From positions 1 to 25,420 of the forward strand of contig CAZFLO010000001.1 in NCBI GenBank assembly GCA_964519005.1: DNA of 25,420 nucleotides. The letters run 5' to 3'. Origin of the DNA: Candidatus Woesearchaeota archaeon (GTDB lineage Archaea; Nanobdellota; Nanobdellia; Pacearchaeales; GW2011-AR1). The notes under the pieces are model-generated. The model saw nothing but the letters and a program-made list of their open reading frames with translations, was not told where the DNA came from and ran no database searches. Below are positions 3 to 23,643 of the stretch, piece by piece. Every line of letters starts with the position of its first letter. The stretch's first letter is position 1. Both the position numbers and the translations under genes were made by a program.

Positions 3-509
3 CTAGAGGTTTTTAAGAAGTGCAAGAAGATAATTTAATTCTGTCCCAGAGCCTAAAAGATCTTTAGAATTTTCTCCATGAAACTGAAGTTTATCTGAAA
101 CCTGCTTTTTGTTTTTAAACTCCTCCATATCACCATGGGAATAAATCTTGAATTTTCTATCCTCAACTTGAGACATAAATTTTTCAAGAGTTATTTCTTT
201 TGGCAAATCTTTTGGCATTTTTTCGAATAATTTCATTAATGCTAAAGTTGCCCGAGTTAAAGCTTCATAATCTCTATGCTTTGATTGTGGCCAAATTCCT
301 GTTTTAGACGAATACCCATAATGTTCTTCACAGAATTTTGTTTTGTCCAATCTAAGAAGAGTAAAAAGCGCATCATTATTCATTCCCGAAGAAGAAGAAT
401 AAATATGATTGAAAAAAACTATAAACGAAAAAGATGCTAACAAAAGAATTTCATCCCCATATTGAAGTGTTTTTCCTTCAAGATCTATTGACTTTTTGTA
501 TGTTGCCAT
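3..509 (-). CDS. hypothetical protein (168 aa)
   Basis: Minus-strand ORF with stop TAG at 3-5. Started at ATG 507-509 (MATYKKSIDLEG...) because the 210-aa track version would read through the hairpin at 557-600. No domain recognised. Confidence 0.6.
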   Translation of the reverse strand: MATYKKSIDLEGKTLQYGDEILLLASFSFIVFFNHIYSSSSGMNNDALFTLLRLDKTKFCEEHYGYSSKTGIWPQSKHRDYEALTRATLALMKLFEKMPKDLPKEITLEKFMSQVEDRKFKIYSHGDMEEFKNKKQVSDKLQFHGENSKDLLGSGTELNYLLALLKNL

Positions 510-556
510 TTGTTTAAATTTTAAATTTGAAAATAATTTTGTTTTTTGTTTGAAAG

Positions 557-600
557 AAAAAAACCCTCCGCAACTGTGAATAAGCAGTGAGGGGTTTTTG
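557..600 (-). terminator. family-A hairpin (copy 1), putative intrinsic terminator fused to next-gene leader
   Basis: Plus strand: A7 CCCTC..ACTG loop CAGT.GAGGG T5. Minus sense: GC stem then a T7-8 tract. Lies between the stop of 622..828 and the ATG of 3..509. T/G box at 537-556. Confidence 0.6.
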
Positions 601-621
601 GTTAAGAATTTAAACTGTTTT

Positions 622-828
622 TTATCTGAATTCAAATAACATCAAAACCAAGCTTAAGGTAAAAAATGATCCCATAACAATTGAAAAAACTATTGAATAA
701 AAATAGCTATTCGATTCTTTTCTGGAACCCCCATTCGATTTTATTCTCTTGTACCTTCGAAAATTAACAAAGATTGAAATTATGGATAAAACAATTCCTA
801 CCACACAAATTATCTGAGAAATAATCAT
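622..828 (-). CDS. small membrane protein (68 aa, two predicted TM helices)
   Basis: ATG 826-828. Two hydrophobic stretches (IICVVGIVLSIISIFV and SIVFSIVMGSFFTLSLVLMLF) around a basic loop. Confidence 0.55.
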   Translation of the reverse strand: MIISQIICVVGIVLSIISIFVNFRRYKRIKSNGGSRKESNSYFYSIVFSIVMGSFFTLSLVLMLFEFR

Positions 829-850
829 CTTTTTAAATTTTAATTAATAA

Positions 851-868
851 TTTTGTTTTTTGTTTGAA
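851..868 (-). promoter_or_regulatory. T/G box (TTTTGTTTTTTGTTTGAA) without hairpin
   Basis: Same box as in family-A modules, 22 nt upstream (coding sense) of ATG 828 and abutting the stop of 871..1239. Confidence 0.4.
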
Positions 869-870
869 TT

Positions 871-1239
871 TTAGAACTCGACAATTATTATTTCGAAAGG
901 ACCTCTTCCATTTTGAAAAGGGTTCGAACCAAAACGATCAGCAAATATTTGGAACATTTTTTCGAATAACTTCTCGGAAAAATCCGGGTGAACTATTAAA
1001 AAAGATCCTCCTTTCTCTGGAAATTCAACCAAAACATCTGAAGAAATCAATTCTTCAACTATTTCATTAAAATCTCCGATCTTCATTTCTTCCGGGAGAT
1101 CCTTTGATAATTCTTCAAGTTCTTTTTTTGAAACAATCATCTTCTCAACAACTAGAATTAAAAAATTTGCTATTATTTCAGTTTTCTTGGTGAAGATAAA
1201 TTTGCTGGAATTTAAAACCTCTTTAATTACATTTTTCAT
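871..1239 (-). CDS. hypothetical protein (122 aa)
   Basis: ATG 1237-1239. Acidic, helical-looking, no domain recognised. Stop abuts the T/G box at 851-868. Confidence 0.55.
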   Translation of the reverse strand: MKNVIKEVLNSSKFIFTKKTEIIANFLILVVEKMIVSKKELEELSKDLPEEMKIGDFNEIVEELISSDVLVEFPEKGGSFLIVHPDFSEKLFEKMFQIFADRFGSNPFQNGRGPFEIIIVEF

Positions 1240-1287
1240 CTTGATAATTTAAATTTTAAATTTTAATTAATTTTTTTTTTTTGAAAG

Positions 1288-1330
1288 AAAAAAACCCTCC
1301 GCAACTGTGAATAAGTAGCGGGGGTTTTTG
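1288..1330 (-). terminator. family-A hairpin (copy 2)
   Basis: AAAAAAACCCTCCGC aactgtgaataagta GCGGGGGTTTTT. Downstream of 1380..1769 and upstream of 871..1239. Confidence 0.6.
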
Positions 1331-1379
1331 GATTTGAAATTTTAAAGTTATTTTCTAAAAGAGGATTTTAATTCAATTG

Positions 1380-1769
1380 TTAACCTGCGCCAGGAGGGTG
1401 GTGAGTCATTATAACTTCATCATATTGCCTTTTGAATTCGAAATAATTTTTCTCGAAAAACTCAAGGACTTTTGGAGGCGCTTTCTCAAATATTTCTTTC
1501 GCCTCTTTTTCAGAGATATGATACTTTGAATATGCTATATCGCTCGCATATTTTTTTATTCTTTTTTTCAACGCAGAAGGATATTTTTCAATCCAACTTT
1601 CCTCTGTTAATTTTGCTAGGTTCTTGATGTCAACAATCCCAATTATCTCTTCTTCAGATAACTCAATAGATCCCCAATCAATTTTGGATAACAATAACTC
1701 AAGCGCCTTTGTTCCATCAACATCTTTAACAAATCCCAACAAGGAATGAAATTTTTCTTTTATTTTCAT
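1380..1769 (-). CDS. hypothetical protein (129 aa)
   Basis: ATG 1767-1769 preceded by AAGAGGAG, one of the few Shine-Dalgarno-like leaders in the window. Monocistronic between hairpins 1288-1330 and 1810-1852. Confidence 0.65.
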   Translation of the reverse strand: MKIKEKFHSLLGFVKDVDGTKALELLLSKIDWGSIELSEEEIIGIVDIKNLAKLTEESWIEKYPSALKKRIKKYASDIAYSKYHISEKEAKEIFEKAPPKVLEFFEKNYFEFKRQYDEVIMTHHPPGAG

Positions 1770-1809
1770 TATTTCTCCTCTTTATGAATAATTTTTTTTT
1801 GTTTGAAAG

Positions 1810-1852
1810 AAAAAAACCCTCCGCAACTGTGAATAAGAAGCGGGGGTTTTTG
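1810..1852 (-). terminator. family-A hairpin (copy 3)
   Basis: Same stem as copy 2; the loop differs by one base (aactgtgaataagaa). Downstream of 1891..2430. Confidence 0.6.
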
Positions 1853-1890
1853 GTTATTTTGAAGAACTATTTATCCTAATACATCACATA

Positions 1891-2430
1891 TTACACCCAG
1901 ACATCTGGAAAAGGAGAAATAATCATTGCATTGTGTAAATCATCCTTTGGATAAAATTCTCGTAGCTCTCCCCCTCCAACATATCTTGGGCGCATTTGGG
2001 GATCTTCATCAAGAGAAATTATGATTTCACCAATTCCCAGTTTCATAGATTTCGCATTGACCTCTAAAGAAACAATCTCATTGCCATTTATCTTTGGTGT
2101 AAAATTGTCCCATTTTTGAGGAGGCATAAAATCTGAATGCAATGGTTTCTGAATATGATACTGATCAGGATGAGCACTTACCCATTGCCCGCCAACAGTC
2201 AACCAATCATATGAACTCCAAAGAGTTAAAATAAACCATTCTCCAGGATATTTTTCTGTATGCTTTAACTTAAGGCCAAAAAACCCAGGACCCCCTTGAC
2301 CATATGTGCCGCAATAGCCAGTACATTCAAGAATGAACCTTCCAATTATTCTTTCTTTGGGGGGGTTAAAAATTATTTCCTTTAATTGTTTTTTGTTTCT
2401 CAATTTTACAATTGCACTTGTTTTTTGCAT
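1891..2430 (-). CDS. hypothetical protein (179 aa), globular Trp/Gly/Pro-rich
   Basis: ATG 2428-2430. Sequence such as CTGYCGTYGQGGPGFFGL and WSSYDWLTVGGQW looks like a folded domain, but I cannot name the family. Confidence 0.65.
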   Translation of the reverse strand: MQKTSAIVKLRNKKQLKEIIFNPPKERIIGRFILECTGYCGTYGQGGPGFFGLKLKHTEKYPGEWFILTLWSSYDWLTVGGQWVSAHPDQYHIQKPLHSDFMPPQKWDNFTPKINGNEIVSLEVNAKSMKLGIGEIIISLDEDPQMRPRYVGGGELREFYPKDDLHNAMIISPFPDVWV

Positions 2431-2465
2431 AATAAATTCCTTTCTTTATTTAATTAAACAATAAT

Positions 2466-2762
2466 TTATTTTCTTGCCATACTCAAATATGCTTGGAGAC
2501 CCCTGTTTTTGGTTCTCACATATTTTAGATATTTTTTTGTATTAGGCTCTTTTCCCATAATTACATAAACTCCCTCGATTAAATTTTTGTCAAGGAGTTC
2601 GTCTGTTACTCTTTTTGGAAAAGTTAAAGATCCTTTTTTCCCCCAATCCCGGATTTCTTCATAAACTCCAAAGGGTCCTTTATTTCCAATTTTGCGTAAT
2701 GCATTCTGACCTTCGCTACTAAGACCTCTTAAACCGATCTTTCCTTTTCTTCTTAAACGCAT
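2466..2762 (-). CDS. hypothetical basic protein (98 aa)
   Basis: ATG 2760-2762. Lys/Arg-rich. No domain recognised. Confidence 0.55.
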   Translation of the reverse strand: MRLRRKGKIGLRGLSSEGQNALRKIGNKGPFGVYEEIRDWGKKGSLTFPKRVTDELLDKNLIEGVYVIMGKEPNTKKYLKYVRTKNRGLQAYLSMARK

Positions 2763-2786
2763 ATGTTTTTCGTTTTAAATTAATAC

Positions 2787-2803
2787 TTTTGTTTTTTGTT
2801 TGA
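2787..2803 (-). promoter_or_regulatory. T/G box without hairpin
   Basis: TTTTGTTTTTTGTTTGA, 24 nt upstream of ATG 2762 and abutting the stop of 2804..4771. Confidence 0.4.
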
Positions 2804-4771
2804 TTAATCTTTTATGCATCGGACAGAAAATGTGACAGACCGATATGTGTCATATCTTCTTACTTGTTTGCTGAAGTCGTGCAAACTCCTACAATATGCG
2901 TCATCTCCACAAGGTGTAGATGTCCACCAATGACCATCTTCTGTAAGATTTTGGAAATAACCCCCGTTAACGTAAATACCTCCTCCAAGTGCATTAAAGC
3001 CCAGGGTGTTTGTTCCATTTCCATTCTCGAACCATCCCTCAGTAGATTTCATTTTTTCCCCTTCATCAGTACCGCGATAGCCATATTCATCAGCCTCACT
3101 TTGACTCATTCCAAAATACATTTCAAGGGTTTTCCATTCTTCGTCCGAAGGTAAATGCCAACCAGCGGGACAAGCTGTTAATGCTGCATCCCAATTGTAA
3201 AGCCTGCCATAGATATCTCCATTTGCAGAATTATTGTCATACCACCAAGAATAGGGAGAATCATAATTCAAGTTTTCTGCAAACCAGGTTTGAGAACCAA
3301 TTGTTATTGTGTTGTAAATTTGTCCATCTCGGGGATCTGTGAAAGTGTTTGCCCCGCCTCCAGAACTAACATGAATGTAATTTGATCTTGATAAAAAATC
3401 TTCTCCGGCTTCGTTTGCGACACCCAAAGTTATATTGTAATCTCCGGGAGAAGAATAAGCATGGGTTGGATTTTGAAGATTGGTATTGGTTGAACCGTCT
3501 CCGAAATTCCAATGCCAAAAATTCGGGTTATTTGATGAAAGATCTGTGAACTGGATAACTTCTCCCACTTCGACATTTGTAGAACTTGCAGTGAAATTTG
3601 CGACAGGAGGATTTATTGTTACTCCGAAACTTCCCGAGGCCAATTCATTCTCAAAATTAATAAAAGTTTTACTTTGGTCAACCCAGGTTCTGCTTAAAGC
3701 TTTGACTTTGACTTTGCCTAAGATATCTAAGCCTCCTTTCAAAGTCCAATAAGTTGTTTTGTTATATGCATTCAAATTTAAGTATGACCTTGCAGAAGCT
3801 GAAAGGCCTGCGACATCGTAGAGTAATAGGTTCAAATCAGTTCCGGCAAAGGCAGTCACATTTAAATTGTAATTCAAAATAGGATCTTCAAAATTGAATT
3901 GATTTGTTAATTCTGAAATTGTCCCCCATTTGGATTCTTCATATTTGATTCCTGCTTCTGCATGAAATTCATTTGAAACAGTTGACGTGTGGACGGAAAG
4001 GTTTCCATCTGTTCCCAAGATTACATCAAAAGAGGGCGTTACCCAAACAGGTAAGATTCCAATTGTTCCTAAGAGGACTGGAGAAAATTTGCATGTTGCG
4101 ACAACCTTATTTTCATTTATTGCTCCGGTTCCAAGAGTGGATTTCACGACCAGACTTGAATATTCATCTAGAATATTTTTGAAAACAAAATGTTTCATTT
4201 TCCACTTCTCGACTTCAAGTAGGATATCTATTTTATAATTAAATATAATAAAACCATCGATGATTACTTGGTCATCTGTTGTCCCGACATTTCCGTCACG
4301 ATCATAAATAACGTATTCATCGAAATCCCATCCAAATTCATAACTCTTTTCTGGTTTGAACAATTTGACTTTGGGTTCGGATTTGTGGCTAGATTTATCG
4401 CTATGCAAAAGCATTAAGCTAACGGACAAATAACCTTCTTCGGTCGCTTCTTCAATCGGACAACTAATTGTTTGGAGTGTTTTTTCATCACTTGAAACCG
4501 AAGTTATTTGCCTTAGAAAACCATTTGGAACTTTTTGAGTGATGATGGAATTGGTTAGAATATCTCCGACAGCATAATTTCCCGGAGCAGATAATGTTAT
4601 TTTTCCTGTGGTTCCGTCGTAAGAAGATATGTTTGTCATGTCTTGATTTGGCAGAACAAAAACTTCTCCCGTACCTGGAACGGAGGGATCTGGCGTTGTG
4701 GGATCATCCTTTTTGCAAGTTGTAAAGAGAATGATAAAAATAATTCCCAATAAATAAATTGCTTTTTTCAT
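2804..4771 (-). CDS. lipoprotein with PKD domain and Fibrobacter-succinogenes-major-paralogous (TIGR02145-like) C-terminal domain
   Basis: Started at ATG 4769-4771 (MKKAIYLLGIIFIILFTTC, lipobox Cys), which also removes the overlap with 4782..5198. PKD signature at about 3368-3613: FTASSTNVEVGEVIQFTD...WHWNFGDGS...NPTHAYSSPGDYNITL. TIGR02145-like signature at about 2807-3346: FTDPRDGQIYNTITIGSQTWFAENLNY...GRLYNWDAALTACPAGWHLPSDEEWKTLE...FSVRCIKD. Confidence 0.85.
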   Translation of the reverse strand: MKKAIYLLGIIFIILFTTCKKDDPTTPDPSVPGTGEVFVLPNQDMTNISSYDGTTGKITLSAPGNYAVGDILTNSIITQKVPNGFLRQITSVSSDEKTLQTISCPIEEATEEGYLSVSLMLLHSDKSSHKSEPKVKLFKPEKSYEFGWDFDEYVIYDRDGNVGTTDDQVIIDGFIIFNYKIDILLEVEKWKMKHFVFKNILDEYSSLVVKSTLGTGAINENKVVATCKFSPVLLGTIGILPVWVTPSFDVILGTDGNLSVHTSTVSNEFHAEAGIKYEESKWGTISELTNQFNFEDPILNYNLNVTAFAGTDLNLLLYDVAGLSASARSYLNLNAYNKTTYWTLKGGLDILGKVKVKALSRTWVDQSKTFINFENELASGSFGVTINPPVANFTASSTNVEVGEVIQFTDLSSNNPNFWHWNFGDGSTNTNLQNPTHAYSSPGDYNITLGVANEAGEDFLSRSNYIHVSSGGGANTFTDPRDGQIYNTITIGSQTWFAENLNYDSPYSWWYDNNSANGDIYGRLYNWDAALTACPAGWHLPSDEEWKTLEMYFGMSQSEADEYGYRGTDEGEKMKSTEGWFENGNGTNTLGFNALGGGIYVNGGYFQNLTEDGHWWTSTPCGDDAYCRSLHDFSKQVRRYDTYRSVTFSVRCIKD

Positions 4772-4781
4772 TTTTAAAAAG

Positions 4782-5198
4782 TTAGTTACTAGTTTTTGTT
4801 TTGTGTTCATATTTCCTAATCTCAAAATCCATGTTAAACATGAAACGAATATTCTTGATTATTTCTATCTCTAAGGGCAAAATGTCTTCAAGAGAACATC
4901 GGTCTGCAATGTAATCTGCACAAGTTTCACCATACTTCCCCGATTGGTTATTTTCAGACCGATAAAAAAAGAAGAATGTTCTCTTAAAAATTATAAACTT
5001 TCCGGACAATAATGGAAAAGAATGAGATTTATACTTTACAAAAACTTGATATTTTACGTGAATCCTTGAAGAAGAATTTTCCTCTTCAAAACTATGAACT
5101 TCAATAAAAAAATCATTCTCTTTTGAAATGCTTGGATTTAGATCCGTAATTAGATCAATCAGTTTTTGCCTTATTGGTATTCGAAATGTTTCATCCAT
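4782..5198 (-). CDS. hypothetical protein (138 aa)
   Basis: ATG 5196-5198, directly downstream (coding sense) of hairpin module 5221-5300. No domain recognised. Confidence 0.55.
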   Translation of the reverse strand: MDETFRIPIRQKLIDLITDLNPSISKENDFFIEVHSFEEENSSSRIHVKYQVFVKYKSHSFPLLSGKFIIFKRTFFFFYRSENNQSGKYGETCADYIADRCSLEDILPLEIEIIKNIRFMFNMDFEIRKYEHKTKTSN

Positions 5199-5241
5199 CG
5201 TGATTTAAAAATTTAGTTAATAATTTTTGTTTTGTTTGAAG

Positions 5242-5281
5242 AAAAAAAACCTCCGCAAGAAAAAGGATGCGGGGGTTCTTT
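5242..5281 (-). terminator. family-A hairpin (copy 4)
   Basis: A8 CCTCCGCA agaaaaagga TGCGGGGG TTCTTT. Part of the 64-nt block identical to 5738-5801. Confidence 0.6.
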
Positions 5282-5306
5282 GAAATTGTTTGATCGATTG
5301 TTTTGT

Positions 5307-5717
5307 TTAATCGGAAATCTCGTAAATCTCAGCATATTTTTTAATTAACAAATCAATCACCTCCTGATCATAATAATATTCGTTCCCTAATGCGAAATTT
5401 ATAAACCAGTCCGGTAAATCCAAAAGGGTTACTTCATTTATGAGCTGTTGCACTTTTTCGAAAAATTTTGTTTTTATATCCAGAACTATTTTTACACGAG
5501 TTTTTGCTGTGATGAACGCTTCATGAATTATTTCGAAATTATTGCAAACAGCCAGATCTTTTTCAAAATCTTTGCTCCCAAAATATGCCCTAAGTTCTTC
5601 AGGTATGTTTGTCTGTATTTTATGATGTGAAAATTCCTGCAATCTTTTTATACACCTACTCTCCCTATTTTTTGCCATTAAGTCTTCTGGCGAGATTCCC
5701 AAAATTGTTTTTCCCAT
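5307..5717 (-). CDS. hypothetical protein (136 aa)
   Basis: ATG 5715-5717. Single gene bracketed by two identical 64-nt modules (5221-5284, 5738-5801). No domain recognised. Confidence 0.6.
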   Translation of the reverse strand: MGKTILGISPEDLMAKNRESRCIKRLQEFSHHKIQTNIPEELRAYFGSKDFEKDLAVCNNFEIIHEAFITAKTRVKIVLDIKTKFFEKVQQLINEVTLLDLPDWFINFALGNEYYYDQEVIDLLIKKYAEIYEISD

Positions 5718-5758
5718 TGTGATTAAATTTTAATGATTAATTTTTGTTTTGTTTGAAG

Positions 5759-5798
5759 AAAAAAAACCTCCGCAAGAAAAAGGATGCGGGGGTTCTTT
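5759..5798 (-). terminator. family-A hairpin (copy 5)
   Basis: Identical to copy 4. Confidence 0.6.
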
Positions 5799-5871
5799 GA
5801 ACTAGAATTTTTCTTTGAAATAATCTGGGTCCAACTAATCAACCAAGTGGTCTCTTGTTGGTACAAAGATA

Positions 5872-6393
5872 CTATTTTTTAATTAATGATTGAAGTGTAG
5901 GCTCGCTTGAAGAAGATTTATTCTTCTTAGCTTTAATAATTTTGTATTCAGCAACAGCAGTATATTTTCCTGCATTGGAATAAACTGTAACTGTCATTCT
6001 CACGTCAACATCCGTTTCTCCGGTGTTTAAGACCTGCGCTGATTGGCTATATACAATTTGCGTTTCATTGGTGCCAATTGTACTATTTGAATTTTGTAAA
6101 TCCACTTCAGCACTTTCTCCCTGTGCCCATCCACTAATAAATTCCTCTTTTGCATGGATTCTGGTTATCTCAGCCTCTCCACCTGAATTAGAGACCTTGA
6201 TTTCCCAGTGAATTGAACTACCGCTTTTGACGGATGTTGGAGTTATACTATTCTCAACCTTAAGGGGGCCTGGAACGGAGGGGCCTTCTTTTTCGTCTTT
6301 TTTACAGCTATCACTCAAACAGGCAAAGAATCCAAATATGATGGCTATTGCAAAGAATTTGAATTTTGTTGAAATAAAAATTGAATTTTTCAT
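5872..6393 (-). CDS. putative lipoprotein (173 aa), beta-rich
   Basis: ATG 6391-6393. N-terminus FFAIAIIFGFFACLSDSCKKDE (signal plus Cys), then PSVPGP linker and a Ser/Thr/Val-rich beta-looking domain. Confidence 0.65.
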   Translation of the reverse strand: MKNSIFISTKFKFFAIAIIFGFFACLSDSCKKDEKEGPSVPGPLKVENSITPTSVKSGSSIHWEIKVSNSGGEAEITRIHAKEEFISGWAQGESAEVDLQNSNSTIGTNETQIVYSQSAQVLNTGETDVDVRMTVTVYSNAGKYTAVAEYKIIKAKKNKSSSSEPTLQSLIKK

Positions 6394-6598
6394 AAATATA
6401 AATTTAAATTTAGTTAAAATTGTTTTATCTTTAATTTTTTTAATTCCCTAAAGATAAATGAGAATTCTCAATTTTGGCTTTGCTCTCTTGAGAAAAAGAA
6501 CATCCAATTTTTTTATATTGTAAAATCATTGGAATTGTTAATTTTTTAAGGTGCTCTTGGCATGGGCTTTTTATTTGGGTTTATGTTAGTTGTTTTGT

Positions 6599-7372
6599 TT
6601 AATCGGAATCTCTCATTGTTACTTCATCTTGAAATGTCTCTAATCCGGGAGAAATGTGATGGTCACTCATTAACGGACAATGAGGATCTGAAAAATTAAT
6701 TTCTCCATCATCGTTCACATCCCAATAAAGAGTTATATTCGGATAATCTCCTTCATGAACATGGGCACTTACATATTCCGAGGTAATTCCGAATAAATTC
6801 CTTAAGGAATTAAAACATCGCTCATCTGAAACCACGGCCCCATATGAATCTTGTATCACCATTCGGAGGTGGTGTTGTCCTGAAACTGATCCGACATATT
6901 TGACATTCCCGCTGAACCAACCTAAATCCGAAGGGCTTGTTCTATCAACTACATTTATGTCAAAAGATTCAGTCTCAAAACCCTCAACTTCAAAAGATTT
7001 CTGAACAATTATTTGCTCATTTGAATTTTCAAATCCGGATTCATCCCAATCCCAATAGCCCCCTAATTCATATGTTCCTGCTTCAAGTTTAGATGGAGTT
7101 TTAATTTTCCATCCTCCAGATAACATTCCGGGGTTTGCACTTTTTGTGAAATTGCTATACTGTGAACCTTCATGATAAATTGTAAAATGGAATTGGTGTT
7201 CTCTCCCCAATTCAGTTTTTGCAGTCCCAGAATAAAATAAATTGAATTCGACAAACTGTGCAGTTGGTTCTTCTTCCCCAAAAGGAGTTCCATTGGGCGT
7301 AGTCGTCTCTTTTTCACAAGCTACAAAACTGAAAAGGAAAATAATTCCTAATAAATAAATTGTTTTTTTCAT
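6599..7372 (-). CDS. putative lipoprotein (257 aa)
   Basis: ATG 7370-7372. MKKTIYLLGIIFLFSFVACEKE lipobox. The first 35 nt are near-identical to the start of 2804..4771. Confidence 0.7.
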   Translation of the reverse strand: MKKTIYLLGIIFLFSFVACEKETTTPNGTPFGEEEPTAQFVEFNLFYSGTAKTELGREHQFHFTIYHEGSQYSNFTKSANPGMLSGGWKIKTPSKLEAGTYELGGYWDWDESGFENSNEQIIVQKSFEVEGFETESFDINVVDRTSPSDLGWFSGNVKYVGSVSGQHHLRMVIQDSYGAVVSDERCFNSLRNLFGITSEYVSAHVHEGDYPNITLYWDVNDDGEINFSDPHCPLMSDHHISPGLETFQDEVTMRDSD

Positions 7373-7417
7373 TGAAATTAAATTTTAATAATTAATACTT
7401 TGTTTTTTGTTTTAAAG

Positions 7418-7461
7418 AAAAAAAACCCTTCACATCCGCAAAGAAGAAAAGGGTTTTTTTC
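7418..7461 (-). terminator. family-A hairpin (copy 6, weak-stem variant)
   Basis: A8 CCCTT cacatccgcaaagaagaa AAGGG T7. Short GC core extended by A/T pairing. Downstream of 7473..8420. Confidence 0.45.
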
Positions 7462-7472
7462 TTTTTGTTGTT

Positions 7473-8420
7473 TTAAAAAAGGAAACCCAGGGAAAGAGAA
7501 ACTGATTGGTTTTTTGGATTGAAATCCCAGGGATCTTCTTTATCTTTTAATGCTGTTAATCCCGAAGATAAACGAAAATCAAAGAAAATTTTATGGTTAG
7601 AAACTTCCATTTCCAGCCCTGCCCCCGCCAAAAAACAAACATCAAATCTTCCAAAACCTGGATGTAATTCAAAGATCCCCATTTCCGTTGGACGAATGTT
7701 TGATATATGGCCATTTGAAACCTGGTAAGTCACTGTCTTAATTTTTCCAGAGACCAAATACCCTAATGAAACTCCAGAATTTAAGTAACCCCTTAATTTT
7801 TCATTTCCGATCTGAACTTTCAAAAGGGGTGCAAACTCGAGATAGTTTTGATGATAATCCAAGTATAAACTTTCATCACCTTCGTAATGAGATGCGAAAC
7901 CTCTTGTGTTCAACATTGCTTCCATTTGGAAAGCAAGATATTTTCCTAAGATAAGTTCTGACCTTAAACCAAGAGATAATCCCGCCAATCTTTTTTGAAT
8001 CCTATCTGATTGACTAAACATGTTTTCCACACCTCCCCATTTTGAAAAATTGATTCCAATTTTGGGTCCAATGTAAAAGTTCTTGGTTTCTTTTTTTATT
8101 ACTTTCTTTTTTGGATGTGGAGCAACAGACGAGGGAATCTTCCCGGAAGACTGTTGTTCTGAGATGGATGGCTCTTTGGTAGAAAATTTTTCTTTTGCCC
8201 CGTCCTCATATTCTATCCACTCAATTTCCTCTATAGAAATATTTCTCAAAGGGCCCTCGGGATCGTTGAATTTTTTGTACTTTACAAAATCACTTGTTAT
8301 TTCTATAACCTTTACAGTTATTTTATCTCCATTAACTTTACAGATAATCTCTTGTGCAAAAAGCGAAGATGCCGAAATTGAAATTAATAGAACTGATAAA
8401 ATTAAAATTGCTTTTTTCAT
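7473..8420 (-). CDS. outer-membrane beta-barrel-like protein with small N-terminal domain (315 aa)
   Basis: Signal peptide MKKAILILSVLLISISASSLFAQ. The C-terminal ~200 aa show alternating hydrophobic strand pattern and end ...SLGFLF (aromatic C-terminus typical of OM barrels). Confidence 0.7.
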   Translation of the reverse strand: MKKAILILSVLLISISASSLFAQEIICKVNGDKITVKVIEITSDFVKYKKFNDPEGPLRNISIEEIEWIEYEDGAKEKFSTKEPSISEQQSSGKIPSSVAPHPKKKVIKKETKNFYIGPKIGINFSKWGGVENMFSQSDRIQKRLAGLSLGLRSELILGKYLAFQMEAMLNTRGFASHYEGDESLYLDYHQNYLEFAPLLKVQIGNEKLRGYLNSGVSLGYLVSGKIKTVTYQVSNGHISNIRPTEMGIFELHPGFGRFDVCFLAGAGLEMEVSNHKIFFDFRLSSGLTALKDKEDPWDFNPKNQSVSLSLGFLF

Positions 8421-8462
8421 TGTTTAAAAATTTAAAATTAATAATTTGTTTTTTGTTTTAAA

Positions 8463-8503
8463 GAAAAAAACCCTTCGCATCCGCAAAGAGGAAAAGGGTT
8501 TCT
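8463..8503 (-). terminator. family-A hairpin (copy 7, weak-stem variant)
   Basis: A7 CCCTT cgcatccgcaaagaggaa AAGGG TTTCTT, followed by the AATTGTTTGATCGATT extension. Downstream of 8538..8876. Confidence 0.45.
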
Positions 8504-8537
8504 TGAAATTGTTTGATCGATTTTTTTTAGAAACCTT

Positions 8538-8876
8538 TTATTCCTTCGAGAAGAAATTTATGTGGTCAAGGATTTCTTGGTCCAAAGGCCCTAAAGAAAC
8601 CAAATCCATTTTGATTAATTTGTTTGTATTTAACTCCCGAGCATATTCAGATACTTTCCCTTTTGAGATACAAACCATTCCAGAGATTATAATCTGGGGT
8701 ATGGAAGCTCCTTCCTGGTAAATTTTGAATTCTTTTTGAATTCCTTCTCCGGAAAAAAACTTTGAGTTGTCTGGGGCAATTTGGATTAAAACTGGCGAAT
8801 TGTTAGTTGATGGATAAATATTTCTAAGTATCTCCACTAACTTCTTTCTTACTTCTTTACTATACTGTGGTTTCAT
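8538..8876 (-). CDS. hypothetical protein (112 aa)
   Basis: Started at ATG 8874-8876 (MKPQYSKEV...). This ATG sits in the same 41-nt leader found in front of 9240..10316, and the choice removes the overlap with 8881..9222. Confidence 0.5.
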   Translation of the reverse strand: MKPQYSKEVRKKLVEILRNIYPSTNNSPVLIQIAPDNSKFFSGEGIQKEFKIYQEGASIPQIIISGMVCISKGKVSEYARELNTNKLIKMDLVSLGPLDQEILDHINFFSKE

Positions 8877-8911
8877 CTTGTTATTTTTTAATGAAGTTGT
8901 TAATTTGTTTT
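8871..8911 (-). repeat. 41-nt exact repeat spanning a start codon (copy 1)
   Basis: TTTCATCTTGTTATTTTTTAATGAAGTTGTTAATTTGTTTT is identical at 10311-10351. Includes the ATG AAA of 8538..8876. Here it also encodes the C-terminus of 8881..9222. Confidence 0.85.
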
Positions 8912-9222
8912 TTAAAAATTCCGCTATCCTTGTATTTTTCAGCAACAAGCTCTGAATAAGGATACGCTATGGTCACATCAACCATTTTTTCTTTTTTGGA
9001 AAAAATATTTGAATGGCCTGTATGTGTTTGATAACATATTAAAAAATTCCACAAGAGGAGCATTGGAACATTCTCTCTCCGGTATTTCATGTAGATTTTT
9101 TCAATTTTTCCTAATTTTTCTTTATCGAAATTTTTGAATTCTTCTTTTTTGGTTTCAGAATCTTTCAAAATCGAAATTATCTCATCATAGAGTTCTGTTC
9201 CTAATTCTTGTTTGAGGTTCAT
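8881..9222 (-). CDS. hypothetical protein (113 aa)
   Basis: ATG 9220-9222. Its last ~10 codons are encoded by the 41-nt repeat 8871-8911, which is non-coding at its other copy. Confidence 0.5.
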   Translation of the reverse strand: MNLKQELGTELYDEIISILKDSETKKEEFKNFDKEKLGKIEKIYMKYRRENVPMLLLWNFLICYQTHTGHSNIFSKKEKMVDVTIAYPYSELVAEKYKDSGIFKKQINNFIKK

Positions 9223-9239
9223 AATTTTTTGTTAATTTG

Positions 9240-10316
9240 TTAATTTGTTTTTTGTAATTCTTCTCTGATTTTTTTCAGATATTCAATTGCTTTTTCTTTG
9301 GTCCAGGCATGAACTCCATATTCCCAACTAGTTGTTTGTTCTTCTTTGAATAATTGGTTTAAATCAACTTTCCAATTGGACCATTCGATTTCCATTACTC
9401 TTTTTCTCCAACCAATCCTTATTGGCTTTTCTAATTCTGTATGGAAATCAAACCAAGGTCCCCGGTAAGTGTATGAACCATATTCATTGTCTCTCCTTAC
9501 TGTGGCAATAATCTCTGGAATAAATCCTGCTGCCTTGAAAATATCCAAAAACTCCAAAGAAGTTTCGAGATTTAGTTTCATCTGATAACAAGATTTATGG
9601 TAATATTTGTAAATGTTGAAAAAGGCTTCATCTCCCGCTCTAACTAAATAATTATCCGAGAGATCATTTAATTTTAACCAACCATGCTCATTCTCGACCA
9701 TTTGATTTTCTGGATATTTTAAGTTCCATTCTTCCTGGCCTGAACGGGAAGTTAAATCAATATAGTCATCATTTCTTATTGCTGAGTCTGGTTGATTCAT
9801 TAACCAAATTGCATCGTCCTGGGAGTTAAAGAACTCAATAGCAACTGCCAATTTTTGTCCTTTGAATTTCTCCAATGAAACAACTTTTGAATCGGAATGT
9901 GAAATCACATCATAGATTGTTTCTAAATCCCAACTTTCTTTGCATTCTATGCAACATGCTCCAATTGGAGGAATTGGAGGAGAAAATCCAAATCCCATTC
10001 CGGAAATTTCATTGTTTTGGGAATTCTTTTTTATGTATTCCCAGAAAGCTTCACTTGTTAATACATCGGGTATGTTTGGAAAATTGCCTTTCGAATTAAT
10101 GAGGGCTCTTGCTATATTCCCACAAGAATCTAAATAAAAATTTCCAAGAACATAAAACTCAGTTAATCTTTCTTCCCTTTCATAACCAGCCACATGTCTT
10201 TCATGAATTAGTTTAAGAAAAGATTCATAAGATTCCAAGGATTTTTTAATTCCTTCTACCATATTGTAAAAAGCGTGAACGTTGCTTTCTTCAGGTTTGC
10301 CTATTTTTAATTTCAT
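9240..10316 (-). CDS. hypothetical protein (358 aa)
   Basis: ATG 10314-10316. Long uninterrupted ORF, Trp/Tyr-rich globular composition, no signal peptide. Family not recognised. Confidence 0.7.
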   Translation of the reverse strand: MKLKIGKPEESNVHAFYNMVEGIKKSLESYESFLKLIHERHVAGYEREERLTEFYVLGNFYLDSCGNIARALINSKGNFPNIPDVLTSEAFWEYIKKNSQNNEISGMGFGFSPPIPPIGACCIECKESWDLETIYDVISHSDSKVVSLEKFKGQKLAVAIEFFNSQDDAIWLMNQPDSAIRNDDYIDLTSRSGQEEWNLKYPENQMVENEHGWLKLNDLSDNYLVRAGDEAFFNIYKYYHKSCYQMKLNLETSLEFLDIFKAAGFIPEIIATVRRDNEYGSYTYRGPWFDFHTELEKPIRIGWRKRVMEIEWSNWKVDLNQLFKEEQTTSWEYGVHAWTKEKAIEYLKKIREELQKTN

Positions 10317-10351
10317 CTTGTTATTTTTTAATGAAGTTGTTAATTTGTTTT
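10311..10351 (-). repeat. 41-nt exact repeat spanning a start codon (copy 2)
   Basis: Identical to 8871-8911. Includes the ATG AAA of 9240..10316. The remainder is non-coding here. Confidence 0.85.
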
Positions 10352-10363
10352 ATAAAAATATCC

Positions 10364-10651
10364 TCAGAAAGTGAATAGTCTGGGGTAGTCTGCTACAAGA
10401 TACATCGCTGTTGCGGCACCAATCATCCCTGAAAGGAAAATTATGAGAGATTCGTGGATGTTGTATCCCTTATAAAATTGAATCACTCCCACTATTATTG
10501 CTGTGACTAATCCGATGAATAATGCGAAAGCGCTCGTACCCATTTCAATTCCGGGGCCCACAACCAATCCAAATAAAATCCCAGTGGCTGCAGAGAAAAC
10601 CAAATTGAAAAATGACATGAAAGCTGTCTTGAAGTTTTTTGGTATTTGCAT
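10364..10651 (-). CDS. small membrane protein (95 aa, about three TM helices)
   Basis: ATG 10649-10651. Gly/Ala/Ile-rich hydrophobic segments throughout. Confidence 0.6.
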   Translation of the reverse strand: MQIPKNFKTAFMSFFNLVFSAATGILFGLVVGPGIEMGTSAFALFIGLVTAIIVGVIQFYKGYNIHESLIIFLSGMIGAATAMYLVADYPRLFTF

Positions 10652-10687
10652 CTTTTTAAATTAATAATTTGTTTTTTGTTTGAAAGG

Positions 10688-10731
10688 AAAAAACCCTCCG
10701 CAACCACAAAAAAAGAAGCGGGGGTTTTTTT
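10688..10731 (-). terminator. family-A hairpin (copy 8)
   Basis: A6 CCCTCCGC aaccacaaaaaaagaa GCGGGGG T7. Begins 6 nt after the stop of 10737..11186 (coding sense). Confidence 0.6.
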
Positions 10732-10736
10732 AATTG

Positions 10737-11186
10737 TTAATCGATTGTGTTTGGAACATCTTGATTATCGGAGAGTTGTAAGAACCTATATTTTCCACAA
10801 TATTTCCAAGAAAAAACTTTGTTTCCCTGGGGAAGTTTCAGAACGAGATATGTGCGTTTTCTAATTTTAGTTTCACCCAAGACTTGAGCCATAAACTCTA
10901 CTGGATCGGCTGCAAGAAAACGATGAATTTCTCCTGATTTGATTTGATCTTCTCTCAATCCTCCGGCGCATTTTCCCGGAATGAATTTGATTGATTTTGA
11001 AAAGGGAGTTTTTGATCCAAGAAGAAAAAGAGGCTCCTGTGCTGAAATAATTTCTTCTTTATCCAGATGAACCATTTTATCCAAAAAGTCTTTCTTTGTC
11101 TTACAGGATTGAAGAATCAAATCCCATATTTCTACTTCAGAAATTTCATTTAGAAGTTTTTGAAAATTTAATTGTTCTAATTTCAT
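10737..11186 (-). CDS. hypothetical protein (149 aa)
   Basis: ATG 11184-11186. Stop codon lies inside the conserved AATTGTTAATCGATT extension of module 10668-10747. Confidence 0.6.
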   Translation of the reverse strand: MKLEQLNFQKLLNEISEVEIWDLILQSCKTKKDFLDKMVHLDKEEIISAQEPLFLLGSKTPFSKSIKFIPGKCAGGLREDQIKSGEIHRFLAADPVEFMAQVLGETKIRKRTYLVLKLPQGNKVFSWKYCGKYRFLQLSDNQDVPNTID

Positions 11187-11216
11187 TTTACAATAGAATT
11201 TTAAATTTGGAAATTA

Positions 11217-11924
11217 TTAAATTGTTTTTTCGGGAATTATTACCTTCAGTTTTTGTCTCCTCTCTTGAGATTGTTCTCTTGTCAACCGAAGTTTTCCATC
11301 GTTGTTGATTATGATGGAATCATTTTTTAATACACCCAGAAGGGCTCCATCGGAATCGAGTTCATAAAGGTTTAAATGTTTGCAAGATTCCACGAAAAAT
11401 TCATAATTTAGAACCTGTGTATATCCATACTTTTCTTTTGCCCTCGCACTGAGCTCATATTTTTTTATTAATGGATAAATTTCTTCTCGGGTCAAATGAG
11501 ATTTTAACTTTTCAATTTTGAACTCCAAAAGAGTTGTGAATTTTAATTCTTGTTCATTCACAATTTTTCCTCCAGGAAAATAAAGTTTTCCGTGATAATT
11601 TATCACATATATTTCTTTTGCGTTTATTCCTTGGAGCTTTTTCATATTTTTCTCAATTTCAATTGTCTGGCCTGGATTTAATTTTACCAAAGACATAGTT
11701 TTATTGAGAACTGGATTGGACACTGCAGCTATATATTCTTCCAAGAATTTTGAGCTATCGGGAGAATAGGATTTAATAGCCTGACTGAAATCTTTCTGGG
11801 AAGTTACTTGGGCAATTGAGTCGTTCACAACTTTTTTCTGCTCTACTCTTTTCTCTTTTTGTCCACAATTTGAAAGTGTGAAAATCAAAAAGAGAGATAC
11901 TAATAATAAAATGATTTTTTTCAT
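11217..11924 (-). CDS. putative lipoprotein (235 aa)
   Basis: ATG 11922-11924. MKKIILLLVSLFLIFTLSNCGQKEK lipobox. Confidence 0.7.
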   Translation of the reverse strand: MKKIILLLVSLFLIFTLSNCGQKEKRVEQKKVVNDSIAQVTSQKDFSQAIKSYSPDSSKFLEEYIAAVSNPVLNKTMSLVKLNPGQTIEIEKNMKKLQGINAKEIYVINYHGKLYFPGGKIVNEQELKFTTLLEFKIEKLKSHLTREEIYPLIKKYELSARAKEKYGYTQVLNYEFFVESCKHLNLYELDSDGALLGVLKNDSIIINNDGKLRLTREQSQERRQKLKVIIPEKTI

Positions 11925-11989
11925 TGTGTTGAATTTTTAAATTTTAATTTGAAAATAAATTGTTAATTTGTTTTTTGTTTGAAATAAAA

Positions 11990-12032
11990 GAAAAAACCCT
12001 CTTCGACTGTTAAGAAGAAGGATGGGTTTTTT
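11990..12032 (-). terminator. family-A hairpin (copy 9, divergent stem)
   Basis: A6 CCCTCTTC gactgttaa GAAGaaggatGGG T6. Imperfect stem. Downstream of 12043..12825. Confidence 0.45.
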
Positions 12033-12042
12033 CTAAATTGGG

Positions 12043-12825
12043 TTAGTTAGTTTCTACGCTGAAATCCACATGGGAAAAGGGATTTTCCTGGCGCATTAAC
12101 TCTTCAGCAATCAATTTGAAATTTACTCCACGATTATAATCTCCTTCGGGGGTTGTTGGGATTGGATTTGCCAAGGAGAATTTTCCAAGATACCAAATCT
12201 TACGACCTTTGAATGATTTGAGGCTTCGGCTCAAATAATTTGCGATATAAGTGGCATTGGGATCAAACCAGGAAATTTTGATTGCTTCTGCCTTAATTCC
12301 TTCTGCTGCTTTCCGGAGTTTATCCAAATCTATGTTATTTGACAAATATTTGCCAATGGCTTGCAAAGCTGAAACAACTTTTTCTTCATCTTTTTCTTTG
12401 ATGCCACCTTCCATTAATTGCAATGCCATTTCAACTTCTTCCACAATCTTGTCTGCTTTTCTACGAGCATCATTAACCTGGATGGCCAATTTTTCTGTAA
12501 CCGAATCAAGCTTCTGGCCGAAACCTTGCGCGAAAGAAGAAATGTTTGCTGGCAAGCCTTCAAACTTTTCGGAAAAATTGACGTTCTCTTTGACAGCAAT
12601 ATTTGCAGTTATCTTTAACGAAAGGCCAAGGGCAATCAATCGGGCCAGCCGGGTTGTCAAGGCGTAATTTAAATTGGAATTGCTCGAATAGTAGCCGGCT
12701 ACAATTTCCTCGGGAAGTTTCAAATTGTTGTAATTTTGCAGGGCAATGTTTGCTTTAATTATTGTGGCAATTAAATTTTCAACATTTTCTGCGGGAACAC
12801 GATAAAAAACATTTGTCTTTTTCAT
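12043..12825 (-). CDS. hypothetical helical protein (260 aa)
   Basis: ATG 12823-12825. Ala/Leu/Lys/Glu-rich helical composition. Visibly GC-richer than its neighbours, which also produces long antisense ORFs. Monocistronic, followed by hairpin 11990-12032. Confidence 0.7.
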   Translation of the reverse strand: MKKTNVFYRVPAENVENLIATIIKANIALQNYNNLKLPEEIVAGYYSSNSNLNYALTTRLARLIALGLSLKITANIAVKENVNFSEKFEGLPANISSFAQGFGQKLDSVTEKLAIQVNDARRKADKIVEEVEMALQLMEGGIKEKDEEKVVSALQAIGKYLSNNIDLDKLRKAAEGIKAEAIKISWFDPNATYIANYLSRSLKSFKGRKIWYLGKFSLANPIPTTPEGDYNRGVNFKLIAEELMRQENPFSHVDFSVETN

Positions 12826-12992
12826 AATAGATAAAATTTAATTTGAAAATAATTTAATTTGAAAATAAAATGTTTCTTTTGACTCTTTAACTGGAGTGTT
12901 CCTACGGAGAACTCAAACCTCGTTTGAATTATTCCTATTTCGTTTTAATTATTTTTTACTAACTATCTTTAAATTTGTTATTTTAATTAATA

Positions 12993-13051
12993 AAAAAGAA
13001 ACCCCGGTTTGTTTAATCCTCTCTACCGGAAAAAGAGATCTTGGTATTACG
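12993..13051 (-). terminator. family-B stop-plus-terminator module (copy 1)
   Basis: Coding sense: TAATACCaaGATCTCTTTTTCCGGTAGAGAGgaTTAAACAAACCGG ggTTTCTTTTTT. A CCGGT/ACCGG stem followed by a T tract. Near-identical to 23579-23643. Confidence 0.45.
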
Positions 13052-13878: not shown

Positions 13879-13883
13879 GATGA

Positions 13884-13898
13884 TTTGTTTTTTGTTTG
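13884..13898 (-). promoter_or_regulatory. T/G box without hairpin
   Basis: TTTGTTTTTTGTTTG, 5 nt upstream of ATG 13878. Confidence 0.35.
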
Positions 13899-13923
13899 TA
13901 TTCAATTAATTAGATTTTCCAAT

Positions 13924-14000
13924 TAATTAGACTTCGCACCTCAAGAGTCGAGTCTACCAACTTATCTGAAAGTGATACAATTAAATGTTTGATTTGTTTT
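13924..14000 (-). repeat. 77-nt intergenic repeat, copy 1 (family C)
   Basis: TAATTAGACTTCGCACCTCAAGAGTCGAGTCTACCAACTTATCTGAAAGTGATACAATTAAATGTTTGATTTGTTTT. Matches 14494-14570 with 2 mismatches (offset 570). Contains the inverted repeat TAGACT..CG / CG.AGTCTA. Confidence 0.85.
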
Positions 14001-14006
14001 GGAAGT

Positions 14007-14453
14007 TCAATCTTTTCTTGGGACAAAAATAAATATTATTTCTAACAAAAGTCCTATCATAAAAATTGTGAGAAGCCCTATTGATGAAAACAGGGGAATA
14101 TTCTGCCATTCTTCTTCGATAAAAGAAATTCCAAAATACAAGAATAATAAATCTAATAGAATTATCAAAAGCACAATGGTTTTCTGCCTCCAGAAATGAA
14201 AAAAACTCTCAGGAATGTTTCCCCAGGAAATTGCCTTTGAAAAAATGATCAACAAAATTGTTCCTAGAAGGTAGGAGAGTGGCCAAAAAAGCATTGCTGA
14301 TTCAATCCAGGAATCTATATATGAGCCGTGGACATTTAATTGGGCCATTGCGTTCTCAAGAGACTGGAAGTAATTTGCTCCTAAGAAAATTAGTGTAAGG
14401 ATTACCATAAGAGAAATTACTCTTTGGATTGTTTTTGATTTGGAATGTTTCAT
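14007..14453 (-). CDS. membrane protein (148 aa, about four TM helices)
   Basis: Started at ATG 14451-14453 (MKHSKSK...); the track start at 14492 is a TTG. Bracketed by the 77-nt repeats 13924-14000 and 14494-14570. Confidence 0.6.
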   Translation of the reverse strand: MKHSKSKTIQRVISLMVILTLIFLGANYFQSLENAMAQLNVHGSYIDSWIESAMLFWPLSYLLGTILLIIFSKAISWGNIPESFFHFWRQKTIVLLIILLDLLFLYFGISFIEEEWQNIPLFSSIGLLTIFMIGLLLEIIFIFVPRKD

Positions 14454-14493
14454 TTTGTTAATTTTTGTTTTGGGTTTGTAATTAATTCTCAAC

Positions 14494-14570
14494 TAATTAG
14501 ACTTCGCACCTCAAGAGTCGAGTCTACCAACTTATCTGAAAGTGATACAATTTAATGTTTGATTTATTTT
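14494..14570 (-). repeat. 77-nt intergenic repeat, copy 2 (family C)
   Basis: See copy 1. Begins 4 nt after the stop of 14575..14820 (coding sense) and ends 40 nt before ATG 14453. Confidence 0.85.
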
Positions 14571-21728: not shown

Positions 21729-21774
21729 GTTATTTTATTTTTATTTGATGAATAATTATTTTGTTTGGAAAATG

Positions 21775-21811
21775 AAAGAAAGGGAGTTGTTGATATTTGC
21801 TCCCTTTCTTT
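21775..21811 (-). terminator. 12-bp perfect hairpin downstream of the frame-broken OMP gene
   Basis: AAAGAAAGGGAG (21775-21786) pairs with CTCCCTTTCTTT (21800-21811), with a 13-nt loop. In minus sense it is followed by CATTTTCC. Unrelated in sequence to families A and B. Confidence 0.6.
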
Positions 21812-21819
21812 TAAAAATT

Positions 21820-23544: not shown

Positions 23545-23578
23545 GTTATTAGAATTTAATTAATAATTTGTTTATTTG

Positions 23579-23643
23579 AAAAAAGAAAAAATTCCGGTTT
23601 GTTTAATTTTCTCTCTACCGGAAAAAGAGATCAGGGTATTACT
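23579..23643 (-). terminator. family-B stop-plus-terminator module (copy 2)
   Basis: Same sequence block. Its TAA (23639-23641) is the stop codon of the LysM gene. The T tract follows the CCGGT/ACCGG stem. Confidence 0.45.

Follow-up and report, generated by a model that had tools for sequence, protein, structure and literature searches.

Terminator-like hairpins joined to A/C-rich gene leaders in an array of co-oriented orphan genes

Results and Discussion

Nine intergenic spacers of 60-100 nt in the 25,420-nt stretch of DNA analysed here (contig CAZFLO010000001.1 of assembly GCA_964519005.1, hereafter the window) share a composite unit in which a terminator-type hairpin is joined to the leader of the next gene, each time between small co-oriented genes that are unrelated to one another. 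Judged from sequence, such a unit is probably an intrinsic terminator abutting the leader of the following gene, that is, a set of ordinary expression signals at the junction of two separately expressed genes. The constituent signals are of known kinds; what is unusual is the local copying of entire spacers around genes that are unrelated. The 5' part would serve as the Rho-independent terminator of the upstream gene, acting partly in both directions, and the 3' part would be the leader of the downstream gene, running from a G-free, A/C-rich box (CAAACAAAAAACAAA) plus TTATTAAT to an initiation region that has no Shine-Dalgarno sequence. Transcription would start at the box or just upstream of it, and the box may form an unstructured 5'-proximal part of the mRNA, used as a ribosome loading or standby region. 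The similarity among spacers would stem from a local DNA process that copies them whole, not from gene duplication.

Anatomy of the repeated units

Read on the coding (minus) strand, where all nine lie, the units present in order an A tract, a stem that starts with ACCC and ends with GGGU, a loop of 10-18 nt, a run of 6-8 U, usually CUUUC, and the 15-nt box CAAACAAAAAACAAA; downstream of the box there is usually TTATTAAT and then an A/T-rich stretch up to the ATG. Nine copies with this anatomy had been described in the original prediction, and direct reading, box statistics and folding bear them out. Unit 1 (537-606) has its hairpin and U tract at about 553-606, its box at 538-552 and its leader at 510-537, ahead of an ATG at 509 (-12.4 kcal/mol). 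Unit 2 (1271-1336; -18.3 kcal/mol; next ATG at 1239) contains the degenerate box CAAAAAAAAAAAA, and the leader of unit 3 (1793-1858; -17.9 kcal/mol; next ATG at 1769) includes a Shine-Dalgarno-like GAGGAG; these three constitute subfamily A. Subfamily B comprises unit 4 (5221-5300; -15.8 kcal/mol; next ATG at 5198), in which a block X (AATCGATCAAACAATT) lies 5' of the hairpin, and unit 5 (5738-5802; next ATG at 5717), and the two bracket gene 5307-5717. Subfamily C consists of unit 6 (7399-7466; -18.3 kcal/mol; next ATG at 7372) and unit 7 (8445-8522; -14.7 kcal/mol; next ATG at 8420), the latter with block X, and brackets an outer-membrane protein (OMP) gene at 7473-8420. Unit 8 (10668-10747; -20.2 kcal/mol; next ATG at 10651) is a mosaic of A-like arms, a loop of its own and block X, while unit 9 (11966-12040; -17.1 kcal/mol; next ATG at 11924) has a stem of its own and 4 extra nucleotides between U tract and box.

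Allowing up to two mismatches, the box matches the window 14 times, every time on the coding strand, against an expectation from shuffled sequence of 2.04 ± 1.42 (maximum 6; none of 100 shuffles reaches 14). In places it degenerates within low-complexity A/C sequence (CAAAAAAAAAAAA, CAAACAAAACAAAAA), and its distance to the ATG varies from 16 to 43 nt across units. Folding energies of the nine hairpins lie between -12.4 and -20.2 kcal/mol (z-scores from -2.5 down to -4.9). The stems are 7-12 bp long and GC-anchored, all nine have a tract of 6-8 U directly 3' of the stem, and one compensatory change (CG to UA) distinguishes subfamilies. Because the hairpins begin 5-75 nt past a stop codon and end in U tracts, they are placed as intrinsic terminators would be expected to be. 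A scan for a hairpin followed by a T tract detects each of the nine on the coding strand, and five also on the opposite one, which suggests that the units are partly bidirectional. (A built-in terminator scan misses most of the hairpins, since it caps loops at 8 nt.) TTTGAA, or TTCAAA on the coding strand, had been noted on both sides of several hairpins, and so it is in four or five of the nine (1271, 5221, 5738 and 1793, with 8445 doubtful).

A covariance model built from the nine copies, a scan proposed along with the original prediction, gives them 75-94 bits and everything else at most 33 bits. Tight copies are confined to 520-12042, and there is none in about 6 kb of other contexts of the same genome. 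Among the weaker ones are a box-only leader (832-917) and several diverged units, all with the architecture of the nine: 21740-21822, 23548-23614 and, on the contig L006 upstream of the window, 1525-1611. The diverged unit at 21740-21822 (minus strand; -15.8 kcal/mol, z -5.9) has a hairpin GAAAGGGAG/CTCCCTTTC, a T-rich tail and then CCAAACAAAATAATTATTCAT. At 23548-23642, also on the minus strand, a CCGG...CCGG hairpin is followed by a T run and CAAATAAACAAATTATTAAT; the hairpin part is 90% identical to 13004-13050, which belongs to another diverged unit (12978-13050, minus strand) within the 290-nt spacer upstream of gene 12043-12825. These two form subfamily D.

The box is separable from the hairpin. 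Copies of the box alone had been reported at 851, 2787 and 13884, and all are confirmed on the minus strand: a hairpin-less leader of box plus TTATTAAT (829-868) directly 3' of the stop codon of gene 871-1239, another of box plus GTATTAAT (2763-2803) directly 3' of the stop codon of gene 2804-4810, and a box without hairpin (13879-13898) 5 nt ahead of the ATG at 13878. The first two sit in junctions of only 41-42 nt. Since the box occurs without a hairpin, directly after a stop codon or before an ATG, it belongs to the downstream gene. The view that terminator and next-gene leader are fused in one module thus holds as to a terminator-like hairpin and a leader being joined; the separable box makes them two adjacent signals.

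The A/C-rich box and the start-codon context

Upstream of the 43 starts in the window, A is found in 88% at position -3, in 70% at -6 and in 70-81% at -13 to -10, while G is almost absent and Shine-Dalgarno-like sites precede about two or three of the 43 genes. For the Shine-Dalgarno-less initiation of Flavobacterium johnsoniae, Baez et al. (2019, PMC6847099) report that A is a positive determinant at -3, -6, -12 and -13 and that positions -14 to -11 hold an A-rich motif. By sequence, the leaders end in a Shine-Dalgarno-less initiation region that matches this Bacteroidia type, and the TAAAATTTAAA element singled out in the original prediction is this same start context. A broader leader motif, ACAAA[ATG]T[AT], occurs 37 times on the coding strand as opposed to 3 on the other, and its copies in spacers mostly lie 18-37 nt before the ATG.

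Public viral, genome and metagenome collections were scanned exactly for the box plus TTATTAAT. The pattern has 130 scattered matches there, of which 35 lie at most 45 nt (mostly 15-21 nt) upstream of a long open reading frame (ORF) in the sense direction, compared with 3 in the antisense control. These exact scans turned up only scattered single matches, and no second genome with many copies of the unit or the box. About 22 of the 35 sense matches come from one marine phage family, in which a conserved upstream element of about 90 nt contains the same 22-mer as the box plus TTATTAAT of the window; one member of the family has a GroEL gene whose product is similar to the GroELs of Bacteroides and Flavobacterium phages. 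The remaining sense matches include genes of Bacteroidales, Paenimyroides and Aquimarina as well as bacteriocin loci in contigs of 25-31% GC. In three contigs (L141, L018 and L098) a TAnnTTTG-like element ends 3-4 nt ahead of the 22-mer, which puts the 22-mer at the mRNA 5' end in these genomes. We infer that the box of the window is, by analogy, likewise the 5'-proximal leader of the downstream mRNA. The recurrence of an A/C-rich 22-mer as a leader in Bacteroidota and their phages is a notable aspect of these results.

The marine phage element itself (L015, L021 and L091-L151; e.g. L021:5933-6010) has the form GTTCTAGTAGATTAACCTAAACC...AACAAAAAACAAATTATTAATTAAAAAAACAAAAAA-ATG and precedes highly diverse small proteins.

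Promoter motifs

The original prediction saw neither a sigma-70 nor a TAnnTTTG promoter motif on the coding strand of the units, and motif scans agree. Sigma-70-type sites are not enriched in the window (44 found, 46.4 expected), and none lies inside a unit. In a test for the Bacteroidota primary promoter (TTTG at -33, TAnnTTTG at -7), TAnnTTTG has 15 coding-strand sites, again no enrichment, and all but one are inside genes. The U tract plus CUUUC sits where a -7 element would, yet it has neither the A nor the G of TAnnTTTG. That no promoter can be read in the units is a further notable aspect. An archaeal TATA/BRE arrangement was considered and rejected, both because the distance to the ATG is wrong for it and because the window has lipoprotein and OMP genes of bacterial type.

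On the plus strand, perfect TAnnTTTG matches (TAATTTTG, TACTTTTG) occur at 534-541, 848-855 and 2784-2791, at the complement of the junction between box and leader, and face the bidirectional hairpin. They are probably a by-product of ACAAAATTA, the complement, and could in principle drive very short antisense RNAs.

Subfamilies of near-identical spacers

Loops had been thought to differ in most copies, and most copies not to be recent duplicates. The former is not so, as loops are near-identical within subfamilies A, B and C, and the latter was overstated. Subfamily A (537, 1271 and 1793) is 93-97% identical over 60-63 nt, subfamily B (5221 and 5738) 100% over 64 nt, and subfamily C (7399 and 8445) 94% over 67 nt; subfamily D pairs 13004-13050 with 23594-23642, 10668 is the mosaic and 11966 stands alone. 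The shared block AATTGTT(T/A)(G/A)ATCGATT, reported in three copies, is indeed there. In its coding-strand form (AATCGAT[CT]AAACAATT) this block X adjoins hairpins of three different subfamilies, which adds to the evidence of mosaicism.

Repeats other than the hairpin units show the same arrangement. A hairpin-less leader at 8871-8919 recurs at 10311-10359 (both minus strand, 98% identical), and the pair brackets genes 8881-9222 and 9240-10316. An 81-nt direct repeat (13920-14000 and 14490-14570, 96% identical) brackets gene 14007-14453, and a leader of about 80 nt is present twice in L006 (690-770 and 2310-2390). Of the eight repeat pairs that are 90% identical or more, seven enclose one or two genes (1271/1793, 5221/5738, 7399/8445, 537/1271, 8871/10311, 13920/14490 and the L006 pair). 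An all-against-all BLASTP comparison finds no paralogy among the genes of the window apart from one common signal peptide, so tandem duplication of genes was rejected as the source of the repeats, the flanking genes not being paralogs. Near-identical loops next to unrelated genes exclude both tandem gene duplication and convergent selection, and show that spacers have been copied locally. Two processes fit the pattern, neither of them proven: Campbell-type insertion of a circle made of a gene plus its unit, as proposed for the stem-loop/early-promoter cassettes (PeSLs) of T4-type phages (PMC2839356), and gene conversion between neighbouring repeats.

In contrast to the remaining leaders, the 81-nt repeat contains G. 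It shows no significant structure (z -0.3 to -0.9) and no Rfam match.

The population sampled is clonal: about 25 contigs, obtained from several Antarctic-lake samples, have 99.3-100% identity to the window. No presence/absence variant occurs among them, and the ends of these population contigs coincide with repeats. No close relative was found for comparison of synteny or breakpoints. An apparent break in synteny in contig L003 (1-1330, junction at about 14486) proved to be an assembly chimera with high-GC sequence encoding a thiamine pyrophosphate (TPP) enzyme.

Alternative explanations

Several observations weigh against a terminator followed by a leader. There is no recognizable promoter in or beside the unit, and strong terminators without internal promoters would silence the downstream genes. 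Because the distance from box to ATG varies (16-43 nt), the box does not contact the ribosome at a fixed position. The phylum of the organism is not established, and homologs of the sole conserved gene are found in contexts that are not Bacteroidota-like. A few genes of this genome, moreover, carry Shine-Dalgarno-like sequences. The box plus TTATTAAT might itself be the missing promoter, read by a sigma factor or polymerase of a non-canonical kind; transcription would then start downstream of it, and leaders would be very short. Such a role would suit a conserved block of about 23 nt that is strictly strand-specific and keeps a fixed distance to the U tract and a variable one to the ATG, it would meet the logical need for a promoter after each strong terminator, and the 22-mer does head the conserved upstream element of the marine phage family. 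We nevertheless consider it unlikely, as the box degenerates freely within A/C sequence (CAAAAAAAAAAAA, CAAACAAAACAAAAA) where specific promoters do not, the -7-type element of three Bacteroidota-like genomes lies upstream of the box and not within it, and, if transcription began after TTATTAAT, the conserved A run at -13 to -10 would in several copies lie beyond the mRNA or at its very end. Internal promoters would be dispensable altogether if the array were read as one long transcript, the hairpins tuning expression from gene to gene as attenuators or 3'-end stabilizers and the A/C-rich leaders permitting independent translation of each cistron. In favour of this are the co-orientation of all 43 genes and spacers without promoter motifs, and box-only leaders in tight, terminator-less junctions of 41-42 nt are what internal cistrons would lead one to expect. 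Against this stand at least nine hairpins of -12 to -20 kcal/mol followed by 6-8 U, through which little transcription should pass unless there is antitermination, and no antiterminator gene is recognizable among the proteins of the window; read-through of this kind seems quite improbable.

The other alternatives concern how the spacers spread. The hairpin might be a small mobile palindrome, akin to a miniature inverted-repeat transposable element (MITE) or a repetitive extragenic palindrome (REP), that inserted next to A/C-rich leaders already present, at TTCAAA sites on their 5' edge. TTCAAA or TTTCAAA on both sides of the hairpin in the copies named above, an "empty" leader (851) bearing a single TTCAAAC, and A/C-rich sequence on either side of several hairpins are the traces such an insertion could leave. 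The left repeat, however, is missing from four of the nine copies, all copies have one orientation, about 6 kb from other contexts of the genome contains no copy, there was no sign of a cognate transposase, whether RAYT-type or other, and the inverted repeats of the neighbouring insertion sequence (IS) are unrelated; we regard this origin as very improbable. The original prediction had further proposed that the units are recombination substrates for the shuffling of cassettes. Spacers of this sort would be PeSL-like mobile regulatory cassettes, serving in homologous or site-specific recombination that shuffles, adds and removes single ORFan genes (genes without recognizable relatives), for instance by circles of gene plus unit that integrate at a resident unit, in addition to their role in expression, and the proposal is compatible with the terminator-plus-leader explanation of that role. 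Its support is indirect: in seven of eight high-identity repeat pairs the copies enclose one or two genes, no similarity exists between the enclosed genes and those that flank them, block X accompanies three subfamilies and unit 8 is a mosaic, tight covariance matches keep to 520-12042, away from the other genome contexts, and PeSLs offer a precedent (PMC2839356, PMC4122927). It is opposed by the lack of any presence/absence variant in the population contigs, of a detected recombinase or integrase family in the window and of close relatives for breakpoint comparison, by a homogeneous gene GC content, and by the fact that gene conversion among neighbouring repeats would yield the same pattern of similarity. 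Cassette shuffling is therefore a possibility to which we give limited credence. In a fuller version, the PeSL-like cassettes operate in a cellular genome of Bacteroidota-like character: recombination between conserved spacers would bring in and excise single orphan genes, each already equipped with its stop and start signals, and an ORFan array of 28 kb would grow with no need of an integrase. The A/C-rich box plus TTATTAAT would then, as a second novelty, be a conserved and hitherto undescribed expression signal shared with marine Bacteroidota phages. This version is likewise doubtful. If cassette recombination were true, the PeSL model of ORFan shuffling would extend from T4-type phages to a bacterial chromosome, and there would be a recombinase-independent route to arrays of orphan genes. 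If the units are only junctions of terminator and leader, their value is practical, as a clean natural set of terminators, and of leaders that do without a Shine-Dalgarno sequence, supplied by an uncultured bacterium of low GC content.

Comparison with known systems

Like Rho-independent (bidirectional) terminators, the units have a GC-anchored hairpin with a 3' U tract and a matching 5' A tract just past stop codons. They differ in their long loops (10-18 nt) and in that copies fall into sequence families instead of being independent solutions, and termination by them is predicted. REP sequences, bacterial interspersed mosaic elements (BIMEs) and Correia-type palindromes are also short, repeated intergenic hairpins, sometimes with short flanking direct repeats. 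Such palindromes can terminate or stabilize transcripts. They are spread genome-wide in both orientations, whereas the units are clustered in 12 kb, in one orientation, and always coupled to a gene leader.

With the Shine-Dalgarno-less regions of Bacteroidia (PMC6847099) the units share an enrichment of A at -3, -6 and about -11 to -14, unstructured leaders poor in G, and the rarity of Shine-Dalgarno sequences; beyond that description they have the 15-nt A/C box plus TTATTAAT at 16-43 nt upstream of the ATG, in an organism whose phylum is not established. PeSLs (PMC2839356, PMC4122927) resemble the units in being composite spacers, about 60-100 nt long, that unite a terminator stem-loop and signals for expression of the next gene between co-oriented ORFans, in falling into sequence subfamilies, and in that near-identical copies flank single unrelated genes. 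A PeSL, however, has a near-consensus sigma-70 promoter and a Shine-Dalgarno sequence, with the stem-loop usually within or beside the promoter, and is found in the hyperplastic regions of T4-type phage genomes; the units have no -35/-10 elements and usually no Shine-Dalgarno sequence, their hairpin precedes the leader, and their context looks cellular (multi-copy IS, no phage genes). They work like PeSLs, yet for want of the sigma-70 promoter and the phage context they are not members of that class. The rAID-1 and integron arrays (bioRxiv 10.1101/471110) share with the window long co-oriented runs of small, low-GC orphan genes and repetitive intergenic sequences, but no XerD-like or IntI recombinase came to light in the window or the 2 kb upstream, and the window has no attC-type R and L boxes and no detected immunity families. 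An integron attC interpretation was rejected on reading the nine units, which contain no RYYYAAC or GTTRRRY cores. By the features that can be tested, the units are not attC sites or rAID repeats.

Gene content and genome context

The window has a GC content of 33% and about 43 genes, all on the minus strand and together occupying 86% of the sequence, with gene GC uniform throughout. Pfam matches among its proteins are limited to Fib_succ_major/PKD, OMP beta-barrels, thioredoxin, LysM and ankyrin. A PHROGs search returns LysM matches only and no structural hits; Rfam and tRNA searches return nothing relevant. No immunity-protein family was detected among the proteins of the window, and no recombinase or integrase family in the 25.4-kb window plus 2 kb upstream, where a divergent gene at the 5' end of the array is visible for 43 residues only.

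The OMP gene 7473-8420 has no homologs that could be found. Only gene 9240-10316 (358 amino acids) belongs to a real family, with 30 homologs of at most 46% identity in highly varied genomic contexts, one of them beside a ribosomal-protein operon; it has no neighbouring genes in common with its closest homolog (46%). The C-terminal 70-110 residues of its product match hypothetical proteins of Xanthomonas and Xylella phages and of a 595-kb uncultured phage. A phage origin of the window was rejected: megablast of the 25 kb against phages is empty, PHROGs gives LysM alone, IMG/VR holds no relatives of the 358-residue gene, and tblastn of its product against phages matches only the C-terminal domain, in jumbo phages. 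A relative at 47% GC (L078:170-7000, in a 566-kb contig) carries a homolog of this gene and a co-oriented ORFan array of its own, whose spacer motif is a different one (TTGAGCCGCACGGCAAT..GCTCA..CGTGTTTG.GTGCGCAGGCACGA) and precedes strong Shine-Dalgarno sites.

The 3' end of the array (window positions up to 53) abuts a 1277-bp IS (L157:1167-2443), with an inverted repeat at window positions 39-53. The element has perfect 15-bp terminal inverted repeats (GGCTCTGGGACAGAA), a 330-residue transposase weakly matching the IS5 family (NF033579, E=3e-7) and an ORF of 53 amino acids, and it provides the last 17 or so codons of gene 3-509. It is present in at least four different contexts in the same samples, and this multiplicity points to a cellular genome, as do the homologs beside ribosomal operons. 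The other IS contexts, about 6 kb, contain no unit, a weak indication that the tight family is confined to the array. A tblastn search of plasmids with the transposase gives no match. Three sequence features suggest a Bacteroidota-like diderm whose phylum is not established: the C-K-(D/E) that follows the lipobox of lipoproteins, the OMP_b-brl_2 proteins, and the context of the start codons.

Two further repeats involve coding sequence. The segments 4707-4772 and 7308-7373 have a leader and signal-peptide coding region in common (76% DNA identity; 53% over 36 amino acids) and belong to the otherwise unrelated lipoprotein genes 2804-4810 and 6599-7372, which suggests that a 5' gene segment was copied along with its leader. 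A 48-nt tandem coding repeat runs from 25215-25420 into L006:1860-2280, in the gene upstream of 24494-25051, and encodes 16-residue units with YQKAE.

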